From a virus (lineage: Duplodnaviria > Heunggongvirae > Uroviricota > Caudoviricetes): 31,005 bases of DNA. This document shows, one piece after another, positions 1 to 17,935 of this stretch (position 1 is its first letter; each line of letters opens with the position of its first letter). A program made the position numbers and the translations under genes. The notes under the pieces are model-generated. The model was not told the DNA's origin, ran no database searches, and saw only the letters and a program-made list of their open reading frames with translations. The DNA is taken from the IMG/VR virus record IMGVR_UViG_2671180986_000015; one strand, 5' to 3'.

Positions 1-564
1 TTATGCGCTGGCTGCTTTCTGAGGTAGATTTAAGTGATCGCCCTTAGCTTCGGACAACGCGTAAATCTCTCTAACCTTTTCGTCTGGCAAATTACCAAGG
101 CTTAACGCTATGGCTCTACGAACTCCAACTAGAGCGTGCAACTCTTGGATGTGCTCATCCAGAAGAATGAGTAATTGCTCCGCTCCTTTTCTCCCAAGAA
201 CATCAGCTACTTGTTGTTTTTCTTGTGGTTTAAGAAATGACAAGAACATTAGAATTTGAGCATCAACATTATCCGCATTCTCTTTTTTGGGTTCTTTGGA
301 ATCTTTTAGTTCAACATCACCCTCTCCCGTCATGAGCCATTCCAAGGTAACATTTTCGCTTTCTGCTATCTTTTTTAACTGATGCGGGCGTGGTATCGGT
401 GCGTAATCCCGCCTGTTGTAATAATTTTTTAAAGTGCCTTCATTGATCCCCCATGCCCGAGCAGCCGCATTTCTTGAAGGGTATCGTTCTACTAACCTAA
501 AGATTCTTTCGATAATCGGTTCTTTTCCATCGGCAGGAAAAGAACCTTGGGGTGCTTTTCTCAT
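1..564 (-). CDS. Phage repressor (at the Mu c position), HTH N-terminal region plus leucine-rich C-terminal region
   Basis: Minus-strand ORF ending with TAA at 1-3. Start placed at the internal ATG (564-562) which has an AAGGA Shine-Dalgarno about 8 nt upstream; the track start at 621 lies in AT-rich DNA with no RBS. HTH-like segment NAAARAWGINEGTLKNYY. Divergent from ner across an operator-like spacer, as for c/ner in Mu. Product assignment is positional plus motif, not searched. Confidence 0.6.
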   Translation of the reverse strand: MRKAPQGSFPADGKEPIIERIFRLVERYPSRNAAARAWGINEGTLKNYYNRRDYAPIPRPHQLKKIAESENVTLEWLMTGEGDVELKDSKEPKKENADNVDAQILMFLSFLKPQEKQQVADVLGRKGAEQLLILLDEHIQELHALVGVRRAIALSLGNLPDEKVREIYALSEAKGDHLNLPQKAASA

Positions 565-677
565 TCTTGGTTCCTTTCTATCTAATTCATTGATAAATAA
601 TGAAATTAAAAAATAAACCATAAAAACACCAAAGAACCCTTTACAAGGAATCTTTGGTATCTTAATCTTTATCCATA

Positions 678-728: not shown

Positions 729-980
729 ATGAGACAAAGAGAAGATAGTGACCGCGATTGGCCTTCGCTGAAGATTCAGCTGGCGCTCAAAGATAACGGG
801 TGGTCTTCCTTCCGGGAGCTTTCACTCCATGCTGGTTATGCTCAGGATTCACTGAAAGCGGTAGTTCGCACACCAAACAAAAAATACGAACGCGTAATTT
901 CTGACGCTATAGGTGTACCGCCAGAAATCATCTGGCCCAGCCGGTATCGTAACGATGGATTTATCAGGAAGGTGTCGTGA
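729..980 (+). CDS. ner: Ner-family DNA-binding protein (Ner/Nlp)
   Basis: 83-aa ORF immediately left of the transposase; contains RDW near the N-terminus and the IWPSRY motif that I recall from Mu Ner; AAGGA upstream of the ATG. Confidence 0.8.
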   Translation: MRQREDSDRDWPSLKIQLALKDNGWSSFRELSLHAGYAQDSLKAVVRTPNKKYERVISDAIGVPPEIIWPSRYRNDGFIRKVS

Positions 981-981
981 T

Positions 982-3078
982 ATGCAGTCGTACGTTACCG
1001 TAAATGACCTGCTCGGCGTACCAGGAATGCCAGCCACCACAAAAGGCATCCGACAGGCGTTACAGCGTTTTTCTCGTGATCTTGGTGACGTTAGTCGCCG
1101 TCGGGAAGGCACAAAAGCCATTGAGTACCACATTGATTGTCTGCCTGAAATAACACGAAAGGCACTGCGTGAACGCTATGTGGAACAGCTGGTGGCTACA
1201 GAGAACAATGTTTCTGAAGTGAAAGCTGTTACCAGAAAAACACGCAATCCTGACGCTGTCCAGGCAATCGAAGCATATCGCGGTTCTCCACAACTGATGG
1301 AAGAACGCCTGAATGCGCTGACCGAAAACCAGCGCCGGGTATCTGAAGCAAGAGCTGCGCTGGTGGTGGAAGTGCTGAAGCTGGAAAGCGCCGGTAACCT
1401 CGGGCGACTGAAAGCCATTAACTTTCTTGTTGAAAAAGCCCGTAAAGGTGAGCTGCCGGAGCGCCTGCAACAGGCCGCAGTTAACGCCAATGCAAAACGT
1501 GGCGCTAATCGTACTATCAGCCGCGATCCACTTTACCAGTGGGTTCTGAAATACAACCAGTCGCAGAACGCCGCCGAACGGCTGCTGTTACTGGCACCGG
1601 GAAAACGCGACGAAATAAAACCGGAAGAAATCAGCTGGCTGCCTGAATTTCTGGCGCAGTATCGGCAGGTGAACGGCAGACCCATGTCAGAAGCCTACGA
1701 GGATTTTGTCGCAGAATGGCAGCGTCGCCATGCGGACGAACCGTACATGCTGGAGGTGATGCCTTCCTATGATGTTGTCCGGTATGCCATGAAAAAACTG
1801 CCGGAAGTGGTGAGACAAAAAGGGCGCGTTACCGGCAGTGAATACCGTCAGCTTGAAGGATTCACCCGCCGCGACTGGACAGCTATGCCGGTGAATTATG
1901 TCTGGATTGGTGACGGTCACGGTATGAAGCTGAAATGTGCGCATCCGATCCACGGGCGTCCATTCTCACCGGAAGTCACGTTTGTGATCGATGGTGGAAC
2001 ACGGTTTGTTGTTGGCTGGAGTCTTGACCTTGCCGAAAACGTGTTCGCCGTTGCCGGTGCGATACAGCACGGCATTCGCAACCACGGAAAACCGTTCCTG
2101 TATTACTCGGATAACGGTTCCGGTGAAACGGCTGACATGCTGGACAAAGAGGTCGTGGGTATTCTGCCACGCCTGGGGATTAAACACCCTACCGGTATTG
2201 CCGGTAATCCACAGGGACGCGGCATTATTGAACGCCTGAACCGGACACTGCCGATGCGTATAGCCAGGAGGTATCGCACCTATTTTGGCAAGGGTGCTGA
2301 CCGGGAATCGTTGCGTGTACTTAACCGTGATCTGCGTTCAGCGTTTAACGCCCTGCAACAGGACAAGCCTCTGAACGACCGCCAGAAAGCGGCAATGCGC
2401 GAGCTGCCATCGTGGGCGGAGCTTATTGAGGCTATTCGTGAAGGCGTGGAATGGTACAACAACCGCCCGCATTCTGAGCTGCCGATGAAACCGAACGGAC
2501 GGCATTACAGCCCGACAGAGTTCAGAAAAAAACGCCTGGCAGAAGAAGACACCGAAATTGAGTGGCTGAGTGATCTTGAGCTGCGCGACATGTTCCGCCC
2601 AATGGTGGAACGACCGGTAAGACGCTGCGAAATTCAGTGGCTGAACAATATTTACTACGCGCCGGAGTTGCGTGACGAACACGGTCGCAAAGTGCTTATC
2701 AGTTATGACATTCATGACGCCGAGCGAATTACGGTACGTCGCAAGGACGGCAGCTTTATCTGTGAGGCGATATGGAACGGCAATAAACGCGCAGCCTTTG
2801 CTGTCAGTGCTGAATATCACAAACAACAGCAGCGTATTAAAGGAATGCGCAAACGCGCTGAGGAAAAAATTCGTGATGCTGAAGATGAAGGTATTCAGAT
2901 TCTGGAACACAAACAGGCTGAACCCTGGCTGAGTAATGTTTATCGCCCGGTTGGTAATGTGGTGGCAGTTCAGCAACCGGAATATGAAGAAGAGCATGAC
3001 GAAGAATTTGAACGCGATTTCCGGCTGGGGATGCAAAAACTTTTTGCCATGCAGGAAGAAGATGATCCGCTGGCCTGA
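982..3078 (+). CDS. A: Mu-type DDE transposase (MuA-like)
   Basis: 698 aa from ATG 982 (MQSYVTVNDLLGVPGMP, winged-helix-like N-terminus); the track start at 913 would overlap ner. Large multi-domain protein with central catalytic-core-like region (WIGDGHG ... YYSDNGSG ... GRGIIERLNRTL), placed between ner and a AAA+ ATPase as in Mu. Confidence 0.88.
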   Translation: MQSYVTVNDLLGVPGMPATTKGIRQALQRFSRDLGDVSRRREGTKAIEYHIDCLPEITRKALRERYVEQLVATENNVSEVKAVTRKTRNPDAVQAIEAYRGSPQLMEERLNALTENQRRVSEARAALVVEVLKLESAGNLGRLKAINFLVEKARKGELPERLQQAAVNANAKRGANRTISRDPLYQWVLKYNQSQNAAERLLLLAPGKRDEIKPEEISWLPEFLAQYRQVNGRPMSEAYEDFVAEWQRRHADEPYMLEVMPSYDVVRYAMKKLPEVVRQKGRVTGSEYRQLEGFTRRDWTAMPVNYVWIGDGHGMKLKCAHPIHGRPFSPEVTFVIDGGTRFVVGWSLDLAENVFAVAGAIQHGIRNHGKPFLYYSDNGSGETADMLDKEVVGILPRLGIKHPTGIAGNPQGRGIIERLNRTLPMRIARRYRTYFGKGADRESLRVLNRDLRSAFNALQQDKPLNDRQKAAMRELPSWAELIEAIREGVEWYNNRPHSELPMKPNGRHYSPTEFRKKRLAEEDTEIEWLSDLELRDMFRPMVERPVRRCEIQWLNNIYYAPELRDEHGRKVLISYDIHDAERITVRRKDGSFICEAIWNGNKRAAFAVSAEYHKQQQRIKGMRKRAEEKIRDAEDEGIQILEHKQAEPWLSNVYRPVGNVVAVQQPEYEEEHDEEFERDFRLGMQKLFAMQEEDDPLA

Positions 3079-3178: not shown

Positions 3179-4162
3179 ATGACTGATATTGATGATGTTT
3201 TCAACACTATTAACGCTTTGATTAACGAGGGCGACAAGTCTCAGGAAGATANNNNNNNNNNNNNNNNNNNNNNNNNNNAAGATATTGCTGATGAAGCCGG
3301 AATGTCTCCGGCAACACTCTCGGCTCTGCGTAAAGGAGAGTACAACGGTAATGTCGAAGGTATGCATGACAAATTACAGAAATGGTATCAGGTCTGGCAG
3401 AAGGGACAGAACTTGTCAGGTACCCCTGGTGTTGTGAAGACCCAGACATTTTGTGATTTGCATGAGCTGTTTAAAACAGTGCGCTCACTCGGGATTATCA
3501 GTGTCGTTGTTGGCGTACCGGGTGTCGGAAAAACCTTTGCTGCCCGGGAATATTGTCGCAGGACAGCTAATGCCTGGATGGTGACTCTTGCTCCGGCACA
3601 TTCGAGCGTAACGGAATGCCTCCTTGAAATAGCATATGCGCTGGAAATTAATAATCCGGGAAGAAATAAGGGGAATATAACCCGCGCCATTCGCAGAAAA
3701 CTGGGTGGTGGTAAAGAAACCAGTGGCCGTGTTAACCCCCTTCTGATTATTGATGAAGCTGATCACTTAAGTGTGGATGGTCTGGAGCAATTACGCGCCA
3801 TTCAGGATGCCACTGGCGTGGGGATGGTTTTAATTGGCAACCCGAAACAGATGGCGGATGCCACCCGTCGTGGGACTGATGAACTGGCCCGTCTGTTCAG
3901 CCGTTTTGCCATGACAAAACAACTGCGCAAAGTAAAAAAGACCGATGTGATGGCTGTAGCCAAAGCATGGGGAGTAACACAGGAAGATGAGCTGGACCTG
4001 CTGATGAGGGTAGCCGAAAAGCCCGGGGGATTGCGTGTATTAACTCACACACTGAATCATGCGTGGCTGGCGGCAAAAGGTGCAGGCACATCCCTGAATA
4101 AAAGTCACATTAAAGCGGCTTTTAAGGAGGCTTACAGCAACCCCAGGTTACTGAACTGGTAG
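3179..4162 (+). CDS. B: MuB-like AAA+ ATPase (transposition target DNA activator)
   Basis: Walker A GVPGVGKT and Walker B LLIIDEADHL; GAGG RBS before ATG 3179; directly downstream of the transposase. Interrupted by a 27-nt N-run (3252-3278). Confidence 0.85.
   Translation: MTDIDDVFNTINALINEGDKSQEDXXXXXXXXXXDIADEAGMSPATLSALRKGEYNGNVEGMHDKLQKWYQVWQKGQNLSGTPGVVKTQTFCDLHELFKTVRSLGIISVVVGVPGVGKTFAAREYCRRTANAWMVTLAPAHSSVTECLLEIAYALEINNPGRNKGNITRAIRRKLGGGKETSGRVNPLLIIDEADHLSVDGLEQLRAIQDATGVGMVLIGNPKQMADATRRGTDELARLFSRFAMTKQLRKVKKTDVMAVAKAWGVTQEDELDLLMRVAEKPGGLRVLTHTLNHAWLAAKGAGTSLNKSHIKAAFKEAYSNPRLLNW
3252..3278. other. N-masked run (27 nt) inside B
   Basis: Literal n characters. Confidence 1.
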
Positions 4163-4177
4163 TAAAGGACATAAACC

Positions 4178-4405
4178 ATGATGTCACGAAATATAAAAAT
4201 GGCAACGGATGCGCAGAACTGGTTACAGGCGCACGGGAGTCACGTAAATGAATCATATCTCGGCGTGGCGCGTCCGGTACTTGAAATCACCTGCCCACCA
4301 CCGGAGCTGGTCAGAAACGCCGTCAGGATTATGGAGCATAAATCAGGGGTTGCCCGTTCAGTATGGACGGCCCGCCTTAATGGCTGCCAGATTATCTGGC
4401 GTTAA
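4178..4405 (+). CDS. Hypothetical small early protein (75 aa) at the position kil occupies in Mu
   Basis: ATG 4178 with AAGGA 8 nt upstream; first gene after B. Function not recognisable from sequence. Confidence 0.5.
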
Positions 4406-4437
4406 TAACGGCTTATTTATTTGTGAGGAATAACAAA

Positions 4438-4701
4438 ATGGCAAAAGTAATTATTGAAATTAAAAATACAGTATCTGGAATTAAAGGACTGAATTTGCGC
4501 ACCAGCATTGCGGTGGACGGTAGTGCGGAACTGGACGGTGATGAGGGTACACTTGCTGGCATGGTGGCGTTACTGGTGCTTAATAAAAGCCAGAAAATAA
4601 TTAATGAGTCAGCCCATGAAGCTATCGAGATTTTGAAAAACGATAGTGTCATCACCGGTGGCCGTGTCACTGAAATGGCTGTTGAAAAAACATGCCACTG
4701 A
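4438..4701 (+). CDS. Hypothetical early protein (87 aa)
   Basis: ATG 4438 with GAGGAA 7 nt upstream; AT-rich coding region; no recognisable motif. Confidence 0.5.
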   Translation: MAKVIIEIKNTVSGIKGLNLRTSIAVDGSAELDGDEGTLAGMVALLVLNKSQKIINESAHEAIEILKNDSVITGGRVTEMAVEKTCH

Positions 4702-5978: not shown

Positions 5979-6075
5979 TACCACGACGAATATTTAATTA
6001 ATTCACTTTCTTTTAATTATGGCGCGATGCGTCAGGGGATTGCTCGCGCCTGAATCAGGACCAGAGGAAATGAAT

Positions 6076-6624
6076 ATGAAAGCATATGCTTATTTTAAAC
6101 TGAGTGACGCAGCCGCTAACGGTTATACGATTCGCTGGCTGAAAGATGTTTCTGTTAAGCGTGACAAAATCATCTGCTCATTGCAGCGTGCGTTTGGCGC
6201 AGACGGTGTTTCCCTTGTCAGTAACAGAGGGTATGAACGGGTTGAATGTATCTGGATGAATCAATTAGCGCCGGAATTATGGCGTGGTAAATCAGACGGA
6301 CTGTTTATTGGTGGATTTCAGTTTTATGGCGTTGTACCGGATATAACAACACCGGAAGGCCGAAACAATGCGACGCTTATTCAGGAACATGAAGAGCAAC
6401 TCCGGAAATATCCCACATTCCCGGTCTGGTTGTGTAATGAACTCGGGGTTGATGTTGTACCCAACATGTTTGATCTCAAATCAGTCTGGACGATGCACCA
6501 CAGCCGTGACGGATTCGGCATTTTGTTTGAGGTGTGCCTGCTGGATGGTGAGGTTAAGGGACCGGTTCCTGCCGAATGCCAGCGCATTAAACATTCTGAA
6601 TTTGTGGCACTGACGGAGGAATAA
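6076..6624 (+). CDS. Hypothetical early protein (182 aa)
   Basis: ATG 6076 has GAGGA 7 nt upstream; ATG 6070 is an alternative. No family recognised. Confidence 0.55.
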   Translation: MKAYAYFKLSDAAANGYTIRWLKDVSVKRDKIICSLQRAFGADGVSLVSNRGYERVECIWMNQLAPELWRGKSDGLFIGGFQFYGVVPDITTPEGRNNATLIQEHEEQLRKYPTFPVWLCNELGVDVVPNMFDLKSVWTMHHSRDGFGILFEVCLLDGEVKGPVPAECQRIKHSEFVALTEE

Positions 6625-6627
6625 CCG

Positions 6628-7167
6628 GTGATTGATGCAAAAGTTCTGAACGGTGTCAGCACATTATTACGGGCTTACGGACGTCTGACCTGTGGTGTTC
6701 TGGCGGACAAAATGAGGATGCCGGTCTCTGCAATGGTGTATTTCCTGCGTGATGCGGTTGATGCCGGAGTGCTGACTGAACTGAACGGCTTTTACGACGT
6801 TCCGCGCTCCCGGGCAGAGCCGCCTGCCGGGCGAAATTCAACGGAGCACCCCGATGTTGATGGTGCGCAATGGTGCACGTTCCGCCGCTCTTTGCCCTGG
6901 CTGGAAGGCAATGCCATTCCGGCACTGGCAAAAGAATTTGCGACAGGCGTACTGACCTGCGAGTCGGTTTACATCGTTGCTGAAGTGGATGACGAGATGT
7001 GTAAACAGGGAATGCCCCGTTTTGTGATGGCTTATATCGATATCCGGCTGGGTCGTTTTATTTGTGGCTCCAGTGGCTGGAATATCACCGACCACGTCCT
7101 GCGCTATCTCATTCTTGATTATTCACCGGTTCCGGCGGAAACACAGGAAATCAGCGAGCATGATTAA
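6628..7167 (+). CDS. Hypothetical early protein (179 aa)
   Basis: GTG 6628 start with GGAGGA 7 nt upstream, 3 nt after the previous stop. No family recognised. Confidence 0.55.
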   Translation: MIDAKVLNGVSTLLRAYGRLTCGVLADKMRMPVSAMVYFLRDAVDAGVLTELNGFYDVPRSRAEPPAGRNSTEHPDVDGAQWCTFRRSLPWLEGNAIPALAKEFATGVLTCESVYIVAEVDDEMCKQGMPRFVMAYIDIRLGRFICGSSGWNITDHVLRYLILDYSPVPAETQEISEHD

Positions 7168-7335
7168 GTCAACTGGCTTTGTCCTGCTGGTTGGCACCTG
7201 CGGAAATGATGCCTGCGATGCCATTCCGGTAACGGAAAAAAATCTGGCCCACAGAGCAGACATGTATGCAGGTGATGGAGCGCATACAAAAACGTTATCC
7301 CAATGAAATCTTTTATTGCGAAGAGGTATTACGAA

Positions 7336-7650
7336 ATGAATAAACCAGAGAATAAAGAAATGAAATTCACACCAGTTAATATTGATGACGTCATGGCTAA
7401 TTTAAGGATGCTGGAACGTATGCATGATATTGTTAAATATGGTATTGAGCATGACCTCACCGCCAGAGAAGTCCGGAGCATTATCAACCGTGAAATGAAC
7501 CAGGTGGAAGCTGCCGTGGCGCTACAAAATGAAGCAGCCCGCGAGGAATACATTCGTCGCAGGCTGGGACTATCAAATAAAGATATTCTTACGGATGCTC
7601 AGATGGCTGAGGCTTTTGATATTCATCAGAATCTTGGTCTAACAAACTGA
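7336..7650 (+). CDS. Hypothetical protein (104 aa) in an AT-rich segment
   Basis: ATG 7336 with AGAGG 9 nt upstream; the 5-prime half is about 30 percent GC against about 55 percent for the window. Charged, helical-looking product. Confidence 0.5.
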   Translation: MNKPENKEMKFTPVNIDDVMANLRMLERMHDIVKYGIEHDLTAREVRSIINREMNQVEAAVALQNEAAREEYIRRRLGLSNKDILTDAQMAEAFDIHQNLGLTN

Positions 7651-7855
7651 TGGTATCAGTGATTAGCTGTGATATTTGCAGGATGGGATTATTCGTTGTT
7701 CTCAATGCCGGAGCCTCTGCCGCTCCGCTTGCTGCGGCTTCGAGGATCGTTTTGCCTTCTTCTGCGGTAATTAGCCCCTTTCTGACAAGGAGTATCAGCA
7801 ACCTTGAGGCAATGACATACCCTGCAACATCATAAGGCTGTTCACTGTTTTTCAT
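7589..7855 (-). CDS. Hypothetical minus-strand small protein (88 aa), convergent with and overlapping the 3-prime end of 7336..7650
   Basis: Reverse-strand ATG at 7855-7853 preceded by AGAGGA with a 7-nt spacer. Product MKNSEQPYDVAGYVIASRLLILLVRKGLITAEEGKTILEAAASG... Codon usage is mediocre and a competing + strand ORF (7650..7835) exists, so the call is tentative. Confidence 0.35.
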   Translation of the reverse strand: MKNSEQPYDVAGYVIASRLLILLVRKGLITAEEGKTILEAAASGAAEAPALRTTNNPILQISQLITDTISLLDQDSDEYQKPQPSEHP

Positions 7856-7928
7856 AAAAAGTTTCCTCTGTTTAGTGAGTGGATTCTGGCGGTGTTGCCG
7901 CACCGCCCCCTTTTCTGGAGGTACGATA

Positions 7929-8480
7929 ATGAATCGCACATCCCTGATTAAATTAATTCATGTCGCCCGTCGTGATCTACAACTCGACGATGACACTTAC
8001 CGCGCCTTTCTGGTGCAGCACACGGGCAAAACCAGTTGCCGCGAGCTGTCCGTTGCACAACTGGAACGTGTGCTCGATGCCATGAAAGAGCGCGGTTTTA
8101 AGAAGCAGAAAAAACATCCCCGCCGTCGCTTTAAGGGGCATGTCACACCGCGCGAGAAGATTTATAAAATCTGGCAGCAGATGTTCCTTGATGGTTTCGT
8201 CTCCGATATCAGCGACGCTGCGCTGGACAAATACGTTGAACGCCTGACGGCCAGACGTAATGGCGGTCAGGGTGTTTCCACGCTGGCCTGGTGTCACGGG
8301 GAATCGTTGCATGTTGTGCTCGAAACGCTCAAACAGTGGCATATGCGCTGCATCCGGGAAGCCTTTGCCCGACATGGTGTGCCTTTACCTGTGAGCGAAA
8401 CCGGGCGGAAGCTGCGCGGCTATGATGCACTGACCAGTGCATATGCCCGCGCACGAAACAGCGGGAGAATTGCTGTATGA
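7929..8480 (+). CDS. gemA: GemA-like protein (Mu gp16 family)
   Basis: ATG 7929 with GGAGG 7 nt upstream (MNRTSLIKLIHVARRDLQLDDDTYRAF...); N-terminal motif and position immediately upstream of mor match Mu gemA as I recall it. Confidence 0.65.
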   Translation: MNRTSLIKLIHVARRDLQLDDDTYRAFLVQHTGKTSCRELSVAQLERVLDAMKERGFKKQKKHPRRRFKGHVTPREKIYKIWQQMFLDGFVSDISDAALDKYVERLTARRNGGQGVSTLAWCHGESLHVVLETLKQWHMRCIREAFARHGVPLPVSETGRKLRGYDALTSAYARARNSGRIAV

Positions 8481-8926
8481 AACAGATGAAAGAGCAGGAT
8501 TTATTCGAAGACTTCCGGGACGACAGCGTTCTGGAATACCTTAACGATTACCAGGAAAACACGGCTTATCCGGCGTTACTTTCTGAACTGAACGCACTGC
8601 TGCGTAAAGAGCTGGCCCGGATTGGCGCAGACCCTGCCCATTCCCTTGAGCTGGTTGTGGCGATTTGTCGCTATATCGGCGGGATGCAGGTTTATGTTCC
8701 GAGGGGGAATATTCTGGAGAATCTTGTCCGGGATATGCGTATCTGGCGTGATTTTAACGGCCATAATATTCCTGAACTGGTTCAGCGTTACGGGGTGACG
8801 TATAAAACCGTCTACAAGGCCATCAAGCGGATGCGGCGTCTGGAGTGTAATAAATACCAGCCGGATTTGTTTTACCACTCCCCGAACCTGCCTCACCCCG
8901 TTCGTCGTCCGCCACGACGTCCTTAA
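8477..8926 (+). CDS. mor: Mor/C-family transcription activator
   Basis: Start overlaps the gemA stop (ATGA). Contains PALLSELNALLRKELARIGADPAHSLELVVAICRYIGGMQVYVPRG and the C-terminal HTH YGVTYKTVYKAIKRMRR, characteristic of Mu Mor as I recall it. Confidence 0.88.
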   Translation: MKQMKEQDLFEDFRDDSVLEYLNDYQENTAYPALLSELNALLRKELARIGADPAHSLELVVAICRYIGGMQVYVPRGNILENLVRDMRIWRDFNGHNIPELVQRYGVTYKTVYKAIKRMRRLECNKYQPDLFYHSPNLPHPVRRPPRRP

Positions 8927-8933
8927 TCAATGA

Positions 8934-8956
8934 AGCCGGTAAATCCGGCTTTTTTT
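8934..8956 (+). terminator. Intrinsic terminator after mor
   Basis: Hairpin AGCCGG-TAAAT-CCGGCT immediately followed by a T7 run, starting 8 nt after the mor stop. Confidence 0.6.
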
Positions 8957-9011
8957 ATGCCTCCGGCACCATGAAGCAGACCACGTTTAAATCTGCTTCA
9001 CAGGTGCTTTT

Positions 9012-9599
9012 ATGGAAAATCAAAAATTCTCCCCGGCCTTTGAGTATGCGCTGAATTTTATTCTGCGTCCCGATATCGAAGGCGTCTATGTCAATGACCC
9101 CACTGACCGTGGCGGCGAAACCAGATACGGCATTTCTGACCGCCGCGACGGTGTGATTGACGGCAAAACCGATGTCAGCGGCGACGGTAAACCGGATACC
9201 CGCATCAGGGATTTAACCCGCGAACAGGTCGCGCAGATTTACTGGCGCGATTACTGGCTGCCTGCCGGATGTGACCAGTGGCCTGATGGCGTGGCGATGT
9301 TTGTGTTCGATGCGGCGGTTCAGCATGGCGTTAAAAAAGCTATCAGGATTTTGCAGGAAGCCGCTGATGTGGATGCTGACGGCATCATCGGTCCGCGTAC
9401 CCGTAAGGCAGTGAGCCTGTCCACCCCGGACTGGTTGCTGACCCGCTGCATTGTCCGTCGTTCCCGCTTTTATGCCGACATCATCAAATCCAAACCTGCC
9501 CAGGGCAAATACCTGAACGGCTGGTTTAACCGCATGGAGAAAGTGACCGACGCCTGTCTGGAAATTATCGACAACGTGTCGTCCGTCACGCGGGGATGA
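9012..9599 (+). CDS. Putative endolysin, GH108-like muramidase with peptidoglycan-binding domain
   Basis: N-terminal motif VYVNDPTDRGGETRYGI typical of GH108-family lysozymes; no N-terminal transmembrane or signal segment; first gene of the lysis/late block; AGGTG RBS. Confidence 0.75.
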   Translation: MENQKFSPAFEYALNFILRPDIEGVYVNDPTDRGGETRYGISDRRDGVIDGKTDVSGDGKPDTRIRDLTREQVAQIYWRDYWLPAGCDQWPDGVAMFVFDAAVQHGVKKAIRILQEAADVDADGIIGPRTRKAVSLSTPDWLLTRCIVRRSRFYADIIKSKPAQGKYLNGWFNRMEKVTDACLEIIDNVSSVTRG

Positions 9600-9671
9600 T
9601 ATGGCAAAGGCTGGGATGCCTCGCTGAGAGCCGGGCGGCGTGACCGCCTGCGTCAGGAGGTTTTACATCGT

Positions 9672-9827
9672 ATGGCCGGAGGTCCGCCCCCGAAACCGCT
9701 GGACTATACCGGTCATGACGGCACACACGCCAGCCACTACATGCGTGGCTGGAACACCGTGGATACACGGGACATTTTCTGGCAGTGCCAGAAGTACAAG
9801 GAAAAACTCAATGCACAGAATGAATAG
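9672..9827 (+). CDS. Candidate small ORF (51 aa) in the lysin frame downstream of the lysin TGA
   Basis: ATG 9672 preceded by AGGAGG (9655-9660, 11-nt spacer); good codon usage; ends at TAG 9825-9827 overlapping the start of the next gene. See findings for alternatives. Confidence 0.3.
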   Translation: MAGGPPPKPLDYTGHDGTHASHYMRGWNTVDTRDIFWQCQKYKEKLNAQNE

Positions 9828-10221
9828 TCTTTTTGTTCGCGTTATTTACTCCCGCTTTATGTTGTGCCAGTGGTCGTTTCTGGGGCTGTCGGCAGTCCTT
9901 TTTCTGGCGAGCTGTTTTGCCGGATGGCAGGCGTTTGCGGTCATGGTGCTGGCATACGGCGCGACACTCTGCCTGATTCACAGTTTCCAGCTGGGCAACG
10001 TACCTTATCGCCTGCAACCCAAAAGGCGTTTCCGGGCCGCCTCCCTTCGAATTGTCGTGTGGTCATGGGTGGTCTGGGTCGTTGGTTTTTTCATGCTGAC
10101 ATTCGGCCTTCTTTATCTGAAGGAGCCTTATCAGCTGGCGTTCTGGCTGGGCGGTATCTTTTGTGCGGCACTTTATAAACATCAGCGCCGTTTTCATAAG
10201 GGGGATTCATGGACCCGTTAA
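9811..10221 (+). CDS. Membrane protein with 3-4 predicted transmembrane segments, lysis-module member (holin candidate)
   Basis: ATG 9811 (or 9820) with AAGGA upstream; hydrophobic stretches FLGLSAVLFLASCFAGWQAFAVMVLAYGATLCLI, IVVWSWVVWVVGFFMLTFGLLYL, LAFWLGGIFCAALY. The longer GTG-9640 version in the ORF track was rejected on codon usage. Confidence 0.5.
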   Translation: MHRMNSLFVRVIYSRFMLCQWSFLGLSAVLFLASCFAGWQAFAVMVLAYGATLCLIHSFQLGNVPYRLQPKRRFRAASLRIVVWSWVVWVVGFFMLTFGLLYLKEPYQLAFWLGGIFCAALYKHQRRFHKGDSWTR

Positions 10222-10817
10222 CCCTTTCAGGCATCGCCTCCGTTCTGCTGAAAGCCGGGCCGGGGCTGATTCGTTCCGTCGGGCGCTGGTTTGGTGGCAG
10301 CACATCTGCCGCCGCTGACTCGGTGGCCGGTATGGTGGAAAGCGTCCGGGAAAGCCTGCCGGTGGCTGAACAGCAACGCATTCTGGAACAAAAACTGGTG
10401 ATGCTGTCACCGGAGCAACTGGTGCAGCTGGAAACCCTGAAAGTCCAGCTGCAACAGCTGGAGGTGGAGCGGCAGAAGCTGGTGCTGGCTGACCAGCAGG
10501 CCGCTCACCACGAACAACAGGAAACCATCCGCAACGGTGACAACGCCACGGACAGCTATGTGCGCCAGACGCGCCCGTTGCTGGCCCGTCTGTCCTGTTA
10601 CAGCAGTCTGGCCTATGTGCTGTTGCTCTCCTGTGGCCAGATTGCCGGTGCGGTTGCCGGTGCGAACGGTATCACGCTGCATATGCCGTCACCGGACTGG
10701 GATATCACGCTGATGTTGTTTACCCCGGCGCTGGGCTATCTCGGGGTAAGAACCCTTGACGGCTTTGCCCGTTACAGCAAATCGAGCTGTCACAAAATAT
10801 CAGCGGGGCCGAAATGA
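10209..10817 (+). CDS. Coiled-coil protein with C-terminal transmembrane segments (holin-like or lysis-associated)
   Basis: ATG 10209 overlapping the previous gene end; central heptad-like Q/L-rich region (LVQLETLKVQLQQLEVERQKLVLADQQ) followed by hydrophobic segments LAYVLLLSCGQIAGAVAG and ITLMLFTPALGYLGV. Confidence 0.5.
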   Translation: MDPLTLSGIASVLLKAGPGLIRSVGRWFGGSTSAAADSVAGMVESVRESLPVAEQQRILEQKLVMLSPEQLVQLETLKVQLQQLEVERQKLVLADQQAAHHEQQETIRNGDNATDSYVRQTRPLLARLSCYSSLAYVLLLSCGQIAGAVAGANGITLHMPSPDWDITLMLFTPALGYLGVRTLDGFARYSKSSCHKISAGPK

Positions 10818-15845: not shown

Positions 15846-16206
15846 AACCCTCATCCCGAAAGAGGCGCTGGCGTGGCTGAAGGCGAAGAAGCTGCGCCCC
15901 GGTTTTGATTACCGGGATGTATGGCGGGAAGAGCACCGGAACAGCTTCACGGTGGCAAAAATGCTGCAACTGGATTTGTTGTCGGATGTGAAAGCCCTTG
16001 TGGAAGACGCCCTGCAAAGCGGGCAGACGTTCAGCGAGTTCCGGGAGATGCTGCAACCGTTGCTGATAAAACGCGGATGGTGGGGCGTACAGGAGATGGA
16101 TGATCCGCTGACGGGTGAAACCCGCACCGTGCAACTGGGCAGCGACCGCCGCCTCCGCACGATTTTTGATACCAACATGCGCACCGCCCGCGCGGCGGGC
16201 CAGTGG
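15838..16206 (+). CDS. Head morphogenesis protein, Mu F-like (5-prime fragment)
   Basis: ATG 15838 overlapping the portal stop (MRETLIPKEALAWLKAKKLRPGFDYRDVWREEHRNSFTVAKM...); runs into masked sequence at 16207. Confidence 0.75.
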
Positions 16207-16450
16207 NNNNNNNNNNNNNNNNNNNNNNNNNNNNNNNNNNNNNNNNNNNNNNNNNNNNNNNNNNNNNNNNNNNNNNNNNNNNNNNNNNNNNNNNNNNNNN
16301 NNNNNNNNNNNNNNNNNNNNNNNNNNNNNNNNNNNNNNNNNNNNNNNNNNNNNNNNNNNNNNNNNNNNNNNNNNNNNNNNNNNNNNNNNNNNNNNNNNNN
16401 NNNNNNNNNNNNNNNNNNNNNNNNNNNNNNNNNNNNNNNNNNNNNNNNNN
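16207..16450. other. N-masked run (244 nt)
   Basis: Literal n characters. Confidence 1.
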
Positions 16451-16467
16451 ACCATTCACACCGAAGC

Positions 16468-16876
16468 NNNNNNNNNNNNNNNNNNNNNNNNNNNNNNNNN
16501 NNNNNNNNNNNNNNNNNNNNNNNNNNNNNNNNNNNNNNNNNNNNNNNNNNNNNNNNNNNNNNNNNNNNNNNNNNNNNNNNNNNNNNNNNNNNNNNNNNNN
16601 NNNNNNNNNNNNNNNNNNNNNNNNNNNNNNNNNNNNNNNNNNNNNNNNNNNNNNNNNNNNNNNNNNNNNNNNNNNNNNNNNNNNNNNNNNNNNNNNNNNN
16701 NNNNNNNNNNNNNNNNNNNNNNNNNNNNNNNNNNNNNNNNNNNNNNNNNNNNNNNNNNNNNNNNNNNNNNNNNNNNNNNNNNNNNNNNNNNNNNNNNNNN
16801 NNNNNNNNNNNNNNNNNNNNNNNNNNNNNNNNNNNNNNNNNNNNNNNNNNNNNNNNNNNNNNNNNNNNNNNNNNNN
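16468..16876. other. N-masked run (409 nt)
   Basis: Literal n characters; only a 17-nt island (16451-16467) separates it from the previous run. Confidence 1.
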
Positions 16877-16910
16877 TGACCGTCGGTAACCCCAGACGAC
16901 GGAGACTGAC

Positions 16911-17935
16911 ATGCAACCGGAACTGCTGGCGCTGTGTTTTTCCCTGCCAGAACCCATCCCTGAGCTGACACCCGCTCAACTGCCGGAATGGCTTGAACTC
17001 GTTCCTGCGGGTGAGTTCACCGGGCGCGATGGCCGGACGTGGATGAACCGCAATCCACATGAGGTGGTTGCCCGTTCGTCCGACATCAACATTCCGGTGG
17101 ACATTGAACATGCCACCGAAATTAAAGGCCCGCGGGGTGAAGAGGCTCCGGCGTATGGCTGGGTGGAAGCACTGCGGGTGACGGACAGCGGCACCATTGA
17201 AGGGCGTGTTGTCTGGAGTGAGTCCGCCCGGTGGATGCTGAGCGAGCGCCGCTACCGCTATTACAGCCCGGCGTTTTTCCATGACGCAGACGGTGCGGTG
17301 ACNNNNNNNNNNNNNNNNNNNNNNNNNNNNNNNNNNNNNNNNNNNNNNNNNNNNNNNNNNNNNNNNNNNNNNNNNNNNNNNNNNNNNNNNNNNNNNNNNN
17401 NNNNNNNNNNNNNNNNNNNNNNNNNNNNNNNNNNNNNNNNNNNNNNNNNNNNNNNNNNNNNNNNNNNNNNNNNNNNNNNNNNNNNNNNNNNNNNNNNNNN
17501 NNNNNNNNNNNNNNNNNNNNNNNNNNNNNNNNNNNNNNNNNNNNNNNNNNNNNNNNNNNNNNNNNNNNNNNNNNNNNNNNNNNNNNNNNNNNNNNNNNNN
17601 NNNNNNNNNNNNNNNNNNNNNNNNNNNNNNNNNNAGAAAAACGCCTTCAGCAACTGGAAGAGAAGGAAGCCGAGGCGCTTGTGGATGCGGCCATCGGGGC
17701 CGGAAAAGTCGCCCCGGCAAACCGTGACATGTTCCTTGCCACCTGCCGCACGGAAGAAGGCCGCAAACAGTTTGCGGAGTACACCAAAGGTGCACAGCCG
17801 CTGGTTAACAACGACAAGCCCAGCCAGGGCAAGGATAAACCCGCGCAGACACTGACCGATGCCGAACTGGCGATGTGTCGCAGCATGGGGATTACCGGGG
17901 AAGAGTTCCTCGCCGCTAAACCGAAACAGGAGTAA
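16911..17935 (+). CDS. Protease/scaffold protein, Mu I/Z-like
   Basis: ATG 16911 with GGAGA upstream. After the masked run the reading frame resumes (EKRLQQLEEKEAEALVDAAIGAGKV...) and ends at TAA 17933-17935, 7 nt before the major head gene. The frame relation across the gap is unknown. Confidence 0.7.
17303..17634. other. N-masked run (332 nt) inside the protease/scaffold gene
   Basis: Literal n characters. Confidence 1.

Follow-up and report, generated by a model that had tools for sequence, protein, structure and literature searches.

The window, by which we mean the whole stretch of 31,005 nucleotides analyzed here, is a Mu-like prophage of Escherichia coli in which a leftward repressor gene lies upstream of a rightward early operon (Table 1). 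Inside that operon, between the gp14 homolog and gemA, lies an ORF that is read in the opposite direction. It runs on the minus strand from an ATG at 7855..7853 to a TAA stop at 7591..7589, its product begins MKNSEQPYDVAGYVIASRLLILLVRKGLITAEEGK, and QPYDVAGYVIASR is a stretch of its sequence. This gene, referred to as gp15 after its counterpart in phage Mu, converges with gp14, together with which it is usually found, and diverges from gemA, the start codons of gp15 and gemA lying 73 nt apart. The 3.5 kb flanking the ORF match SfMu, Mu, D108, and several Yersinia Mu-like phages, and a 661-nt segment spanning the locus is 100% identical to that of E. coli FDAARGOS_943.

Table 1. Features at and around the gp15 locus. 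Positions are those of the window unless another record is named.
Feature	Position	Strand	Basis or remark
Repressor	1..621	-	Upstream of the rightward early operon
DUF5420-protein homolog	6019..6624	+	Early operon
gp11-family gene	6628..7167	+	Early operon
gp14 homolog, convergent partner of gp15	7336..7650 (PGAP start 7303)	+	phrog_6075
gp15/gp14 convergent overlap, 62 nt	7589..7650	both	gp15 C-terminal tail (~20 codons) against gp14 3' end
gp15-family CDS, 88 aa	7589..7855	-	phrog_8747, PGAP annotation, frame conservation, dN/dS
61-aa ORF, equivalent of Mu_54, judged a shadow ORF	7650..7835	+	Antisense frame, wobble positions in common with gp15
gp15 non-overlapping body and RBS, ~225 nt	7652..7876	both	Mu counterpart (224 nt) precisely absent in vB_YpM_3
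Shine-Dalgarno AGAGGA	7864..7869	-	8 nt before the gp15 ATG
GC-rich hairpin GGCGGTG-N6-CACCGCC, then T-rich run	7888..7917 (hairpin 7888..7907)	+	Directly upstream of the gemA RBS
gemA, divergent neighbor of gp15	7929..8480	+	PF06252
mor	8477..8926	+	PF08765
gp15-family ORF of D108, 119 aa, unannotated, RBS AAGGA	NC_013594.1 7853..8212 (= L029 1054..1413)	-	Family profile

A preliminary description of the window, made from its letters only, had singled out this small minus-strand ORF, located within the rightward early operon, as the one leftward gene besides the repressor that seemed credible. The ORF is present as described, and the claim that it is a gene is supported by conservation of its frame across lineages, as set out below. 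The AGAGGA motif that the description had placed 7 nt before the start codon is also there, with a spacing of 8 nt, and the convergent overlap with gp14, given as about 60 nt, measures 62 nt. Purine-rich ribosome-binding sites precede the gene in other lineages as well: AAGGA is the site in D108 and the L022 type, AAGGAG that of L033, and GAGAGGA that of Mu, and the Salmonella type has the complement of CCTTC. The overlap with gp14 amounts to 20, 45, 53, 56, or 62 nt depending on the lineage, and the two genes always meet tail to tail. In the window, 108 ORFs are 80 aa or longer, and many of them shadow real genes, so that the length of an ORF proves nothing and the reality of gp15 rests on comparative evidence.

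Beyond the repressor and gp15, no credible leftward gene was found in the Mu stretch covered by the window. A 628-aa antisense ORF (15909..17795, minus strand), which extends across the minor-head and protease genes and has no PHROG match, presumably shadows those genes, although its length is unusual for a window whose GC content is about 50%. Upstream of gp14, a gp13-like gene at about 7160..7343 (plus strand) is a frameshifted pseudogene according to the PGAP annotation of the identical E. coli locus (L021 461..644), and the window prophage may thus carry at least one decayed early gene.

The intergenic stretch between gp15 and gemA contains a GC-rich hairpin, the top terminator-like site of the region. 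The hairpin is kept in all Mu-like lineages examined, including those that lack gp15; in nine variants 100% of its cells are paired, with compensatory changes at two of the pairs. Its minus strand has no T-run, and it looks like an intrinsic terminator of the plus strand. In Mu, the annotation of AF083977 places a "semi-early promoter" over the same stretch. The structure may act as a partial terminator or attenuator that gates read-through into gemA-mor, or it may be a 5' stem-loop of a gem transcript. The gem operon is expressed in lysogens according to literature cited in PMC3820752. Next to the hairpin, the nucleotides that separate the gemA start codon from its Shine-Dalgarno sequence (7918..7931, plus strand; GGAGGTACGAT[A/C]ATG) hardly vary, even among lineages whose neighboring genes have diverged by about 50%.

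Family membership and coding strand

The profile search recommended for the 88-aa product returned phrog_8747 (E 7.1e-26, residues 1-86), followed by phrog_32893 (E 4.5e-8), and phmmer against representative sequences gave an E-value of 4.8e-18. The product is identical to RefSeq WP_072035588.1, which PGAP annotates in the identical E. coli locus. Judged by sequence, the gene is an ortholog of phage Mu gp15 (Mup15, NP_050619; "F-134" in M64097) and of SfMu gp16, and its call is not new, since the gene is already annotated as a member of the Mu gp15 family. It resembles Mu gp15 and SfMu gp16 in its length of 88 aa, its slot, its strand, the type of its RBS, and its overlap of about 60 nt with gp14. 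At the protein level, identity to Mu gp15 is 54% (tblastn, 87 of 88 residues, E 1e-18) and to SfMu gp16 52% over the full length. The window protein represents a distinct allele lineage relative to these two, with residues ~38-60 strongly diverged. The same slot and orientation are found in Mu, SfMu, vB_YpM_Tongde, E. coli W, and Salmonella prophages. As the synteny of related prophages confirms, the gene order is always gp14-gp15-gemA and gp15 is always opposed to the early operon.

More distant members of the family occupy the slot in other Mu-like elements. In D108, the 376-bp gap between gp14 and gemA, which is unannotated, holds a divergent gp15-family ORF whose core, FGITGFMLVGNLMIKLIENGVINMHDAYDIIRNT, aligns to the window core YDVAGYVIASRLLILLVRKGLITAEEGKTILEAA; the proteins of L033 and Citrobacter belong to the D108 type. 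Together with the L022-type homologs, these proteins match the family profile with E-values of 1e-20 to 1e-26, and they share slot, orientation, RBS, and the helix-turn-helix core with the window protein, to which they are 15-31% identical with the core motif kept. The D108-type proteins differ from it in carrying an acidic N-terminal extension of about 30 aa as well as another third helix and tail. A family-profile search of 5.8 billion proteins and a full HMMER search of 1.84 billion representatives located the family only in enterobacterial Mu-like elements. Two of the seven full-HMMER matches, an ankyrin-repeat protein and a second repetitive protein, were judged to be false positives inflated by their repeats. 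A word-indexed search with the single protein recovered near-identical proteins only, and a search of genome contigs for the family gave no matches. The searchable literature on Mu gp15 yielded no data on expression, peptide, phenotype, or function.

The two main records of Mu disagree on which strand codes at this position. NC_000929 carries gp15 at 7896..8162 on the minus strand, while AF083977 carries Mu_54 at 7960..8127 on the plus strand. In the current, re-annotated version of AF083977, which was updated around 2022 (acknowledged in PMC9239132), the leftward gp15 is no longer annotated. The plus-strand reading holds that Mu_54, represented in the window by the 61-aa ORF, is the real gene, translationally coupled to gp14 through the overlapping TGATG, and that the minus-strand ORF is its shadow. 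Besides the record itself, it has in its favor an ATG that overlaps the gp14 stop codon and a frame that is open in the window and Mu types, with a dN/dS below 1 that it owes to the wobble positions in common with the minus frame. Since the two frames have their third codon positions in common, codon periodicity cannot separate them. They were instead compared across six lineages, namely the window, Mu, Salmonella (P0004, L024), L022, D108, and L033 types, and dN/dS was estimated by the Nei-Gojobori method over the non-overlapping codons, with seven informative comparisons and two near-identical pairs that are uninformative.

The minus frame is open in all six lineages, and each of its ATG codons has a purine-rich RBS upstream. 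The plus frame, in contrast, is broken by in-frame stops in four of them (the Salmonella, L022, D108, and L033 types), and even between the window and Mu its stop shifts, giving 61 and 55 aa, respectively. Between diverged lineages, dN/dS is clearly below 1 only in the minus frame, where it ranges from 0.18 to 0.48, and in the antisense frame that shares its wobble positions; the other four frames give values of ~0.6-1.8. Six of the seven informative comparisons give the minus frame the lower dN/dS, for example 0.32 vs. 0.54 between the window and Mu and 0.46 vs. 0.90 between Mu and the L022 type, the exception being the window and L024. Amino acid identity and mean BLOSUM62 score are higher in the minus frame in each of the six between-lineage comparisons (window and Mu: 53% vs. 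43% and 2.62 vs. 1.72). No PHROG family matches the plus-strand product at E <= 1, and the sole Pfam match, YjbT at E 0.037, is at chance level and far below threshold. In addition, AF083977 credits Mu_54 with an RBS of only 3 nt, and an antisense frame that is open in two of six lineages is within rough expectation for chance. The preliminary description had allowed that the plus-strand ORF might be the conserved frame; the conserved frame is instead the reverse one, open and under purifying selection in six diverged lineages. Mu_54 as a real gene is already largely refuted by these results, and we consider it very improbable. A third reading, in which neither strand codes and the ORF arose fortuitously within a 3' UTR of the early operon or an antisense-RNA spacer, agrees with promoter scans that found none (see below). 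However, the differences between the window and Mu cluster at one codon position (23/19/35), the minus-frame dN/dS is that of a constrained frame, and ORF, start codon, and RBS are kept at 15-50% protein identity. This substitution pattern refutes a non-coding stretch, to which we assign next to no probability. The comparative evidence thus favors the leftward gp15 as the coding gene and Mu_54 as a shadow ORF.

The protein and its variable slot

The gp15 product is acidic, with a pI of about 4.6. Two AlphaFold runs, based on alignments of 10 and 13 sequences, both gave three helices, at approximately residues 10-25, 31-47, and 61-78. The models have a mean pLDDT of 71, with values of 84-89 in residues 11-40 and low confidence at the N-terminus and in the tail, from residue ~80 onward. 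In fold class, gp15 is a small, soluble, acidic three-helix protein. The tail, encoded where the ORF enters sequence antisense to the 3' end of gp14, is acidic and proline-rich and is probably disordered. The core conserved in the family is a helix-turn-helix hairpin with the pattern [FY]D[IV]A[AG][FY]..[AG].L...L..[KN]G.I...[ED]...I.

The hydrophobic N-proximal segment pointed out in the preliminary description, YVIASRLLILLVRKGLI, does exist, but it does not span a membrane. It has R and K inside it, and its best 19-residue Kyte-Doolittle mean in the window protein is 1.51 against the usual transmembrane cut-off of about 1.6 (0.94-1.51 across four lineages), so that it is better described as an amphipathic helix. 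For the same reasons, a transmembrane protein or an exclusion protein of the Sie or Imm kind was considered and rejected. A DNA-binding regulator was also set aside on account of the acidic pI, which is weak evidence.

Part of the core resembles the SHOCT domain, a type of oligomerization or interaction motif. SHOCT_2 (PF20612) and SHOCT-like_DUF2089-C (PF22746) are short helix-turn-helix domains with L..KG.IT.EE, as in gp15, and in 5 of 10 family members SHOCT-type Pfam models give sub-threshold matches centered on KG.IT.EE. None of the scores attains the gathering threshold (PF22746 reaches 17.5 bits against a threshold of 27 bits, and the best E-value for SHOCT_2 is 0.057). Furthermore, SHOCT is by definition a short C-terminal domain, whereas the motif in gp15 is N-proximal, at residues 23-40 of 88. 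The relation is therefore one of resemblance and not of membership. In PADLOC-DB, four members of the family had no defense-model match at E <= 1, a sequence-profile search of the PDB with gp15 gave nothing below E 0.38, and Rfam returned only chance snoRNA matches. The family's confinement to enterobacterial Mu-like phages leaves little comparative leverage on what gp15 does.

The presence of gp15 varies between otherwise collinear relatives. In the Yersinia phage vB_YpM_3 and its relatives, 224 nt are lost with a TGAT microhomology at the junction, while gp14 and the hairpin before gemA are retained. In L030, a single deletion (~877..900) has joined gp14 codon 6 to gp15 codon 5 in antisense, leaving the gp15 RBS and the hairpin in place, and in L032 an unrelated gene sits in the gp14-gp15 slot and both genes are absent. 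On this comparison gp15 is an accessory cassette. It is also dispensable for lytic growth, given that vB_YpM_3 is an isolated phage that grows without it. The 224-nt indel contains the body of the gp15 ORF and its RBS and nothing else, which leaves no room for a promoter, so that the module that comes and goes does not bring a promoter of its own.

Several copies of the gene are altered at the 3' end. In L028, a Salmonella copy, an insertion-sequence transposase (3236..4444; Transposase_mut, PF00872) lies in the 3' end of the gp15 homolog and replaces its C-terminal tail (protein P0005). The L022-type database copies P0019 to P0023 have their N-terminal ~43 residues in common, and their C-terminal halves are frameshifted and unrelated. 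The frameshifts suggest either constraint on the N-terminal domain alone or decay of these copies. With tails replaced or frameshifted in both L028 and the L022 type, the N-terminal ~45 residues appear to be the constrained part of the protein. A second opposite-strand accessory slot exists between gemA and mor, where the Salmonella prophages L024 and L025 have an extra 111-aa gene opposed to the early operon (2052..2387), plus a 63-aa gene.

Expression and possible roles

The gp15 gene, including its RBS, is wholly antisense to the early transcript from Pe, and a leftward promoter near the gemA start is therefore required. The preliminary description had suggested looking for one within 7856-7930, and neither of the two scans found it there. 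A consensus scan of 6000..10500 detected no sigma-70-like promoter on the minus strand. A position-weight scan of the 260 nt upstream of gp15 in six lineages gave best scores of 5.6-7.4, where shuffled sequence yields best scores with a median of 6.8, and no position was common between lineages. Scans of this kind leave room for a weak or activator-dependent promoter. By eye, nothing upstream of gp15 resembles the region downstream of mor, which contains the middle promoter of Mu. Just to the left of 7589 there is no convincing leftward terminator, the nearest leftward hairpin with a T-run being a weak one at 7261..7247, about 330 nt past the gp15 stop. The composition of gp15 is not foreign, its GC content of 0.47 comparing with 0.42 in gp14 and 0.54 in gemA.

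Morons of temperate, lambda-like phages, as defined in the work of Hendrix and Juhala, resemble gp15 in that they are extra genes between two genes of an operon, variably present and opposed to that operon. They are unlike it in that no own promoter, convincing terminator, or deviant composition was detected for gp15. Of the features expected of a moron expressed from the lysogen, gp15 thus shows presence and absence between collinear relatives; an own promoter, a convincing terminator, foreign composition, and a defense match were looked for and not found. A parallel in layout comes from the transposable Pseudomonas phage Fc02, in which olg1/sie1, set against gene 10, is antisense to early-operon genes, is transcribed in the lysogen, and confers superinfection exclusion, the opposite-strand gene being silenced when Pe fires (PMC9936078). 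As with gp15, a small gene of a transposable phage lies antisense to early-operon genes. The Fc02 genes, however, adjoin the repressor and have a repressor-side promoter, whereas gp15 is about 7 kb into the operon with no promoter identified, and there is no sequence similarity between gp15 and the Fc02 exclusion genes.

The explanation that we favor, and hold as a whole to be reasonably probable, is that gp15 is a real ortholog of Mu gp15, an accessory gene made when early transcription is low, whose product binds other proteins. A promoter at or inside the 5' end of gemA, either weak or dependent on a factor, would drive its leftward transcription. The protein would accumulate only while early transcription stays low, as it does in the lysogen or in the first moments of infection, and from the layout of the locus we infer that the lysogen may express it. 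During lytic growth, convergent transcription and the formation of an RNA duplex would shut gp15 off, and mutual interference between gp15 and the early transcript, which had been raised in the preliminary description, is plausible from the geometry. The protein most likely binds another protein of host or phage, with gp14, GemA, and Mor as candidates, and would be unlikely to bind DNA or to sit in the membrane. The idea of a binding protein draws on size, charge, and motif, because the only matches of fold searches are Mu's own ORF, de novo designs, and helical bundles of a generic kind.

An alternative possibility, and the main open rival, is that gp15 belongs to the lytic cycle, with leftward transcription that begins only upon induction, for instance at an activator-dependent promoter, and with a product that acts during lytic growth, possibly as an anti-defense or host-takeover factor. 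Small acidic phage proteins often inhibit host proteins, and the absence of a sigma-70-like promoter fits dependence on an activator. The neighboring genes gam and gemA have functions in host DNA ends and repair (PMC12407980), which also counts toward a lytic role. Such a gene would nonetheless have to work head-on against the strongest early transcription unit, with its whole mRNA complementary to the early transcript; its upstream region is, by eye, unlike the region downstream of mor, and vB_YpM_3 grows without it. On balance, we consider a lytic role unlikely. It is also conceivable that gp14 and gp15 form one antisense-coupled cassette whose members silence each other, in the manner of a toxin-antitoxin pair or of a switch that gates read-through into gemA-mor. 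In six lineages the two genes are found together and have diverged in step, and their 3' ends overlap in every case (by 20-62 nt). A single deletion removed both of them in L030, L032 has neither, and the conserved terminator-like hairpin follows the pair before gemA. Yet gp14 persists alone in vB_YpM_3 and its relatives, so that it is not toxic by itself in that setting, and neither protein matches a known toxin, antitoxin, or defense family. This makes a mutually silencing cassette decidedly unlikely in our estimation.

As the outcome of a scan, gp15 is ordinary: a hypothetical gene, already annotated, that is conserved in six diverged lineages. Mu, however, is a reference phage whose two main records conflict on the coding strand, and the comparative evidence presented here favors gp15. 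The resolution of the conflict between gp15 and Mu_54 is thus a by-product of the analysis, as are the unannotated homolog in D108 and the conserved terminator-like hairpin before gemA. A more far-reaching possibility, which is speculative and in our judgment rather unlikely, is that gp15 and gp14 constitute an unrecognized antisense-coupled switch of Mu-like phages, in which synthesis of gp15 would be restricted to times when the early promoter is quiet and either its protein or head-on transcription towards the hairpin would limit leaky read-through into gemA-mor. If such a switch exists, it would stabilize lysogeny, or the lysogen would gain a conversion or exclusion phenotype.
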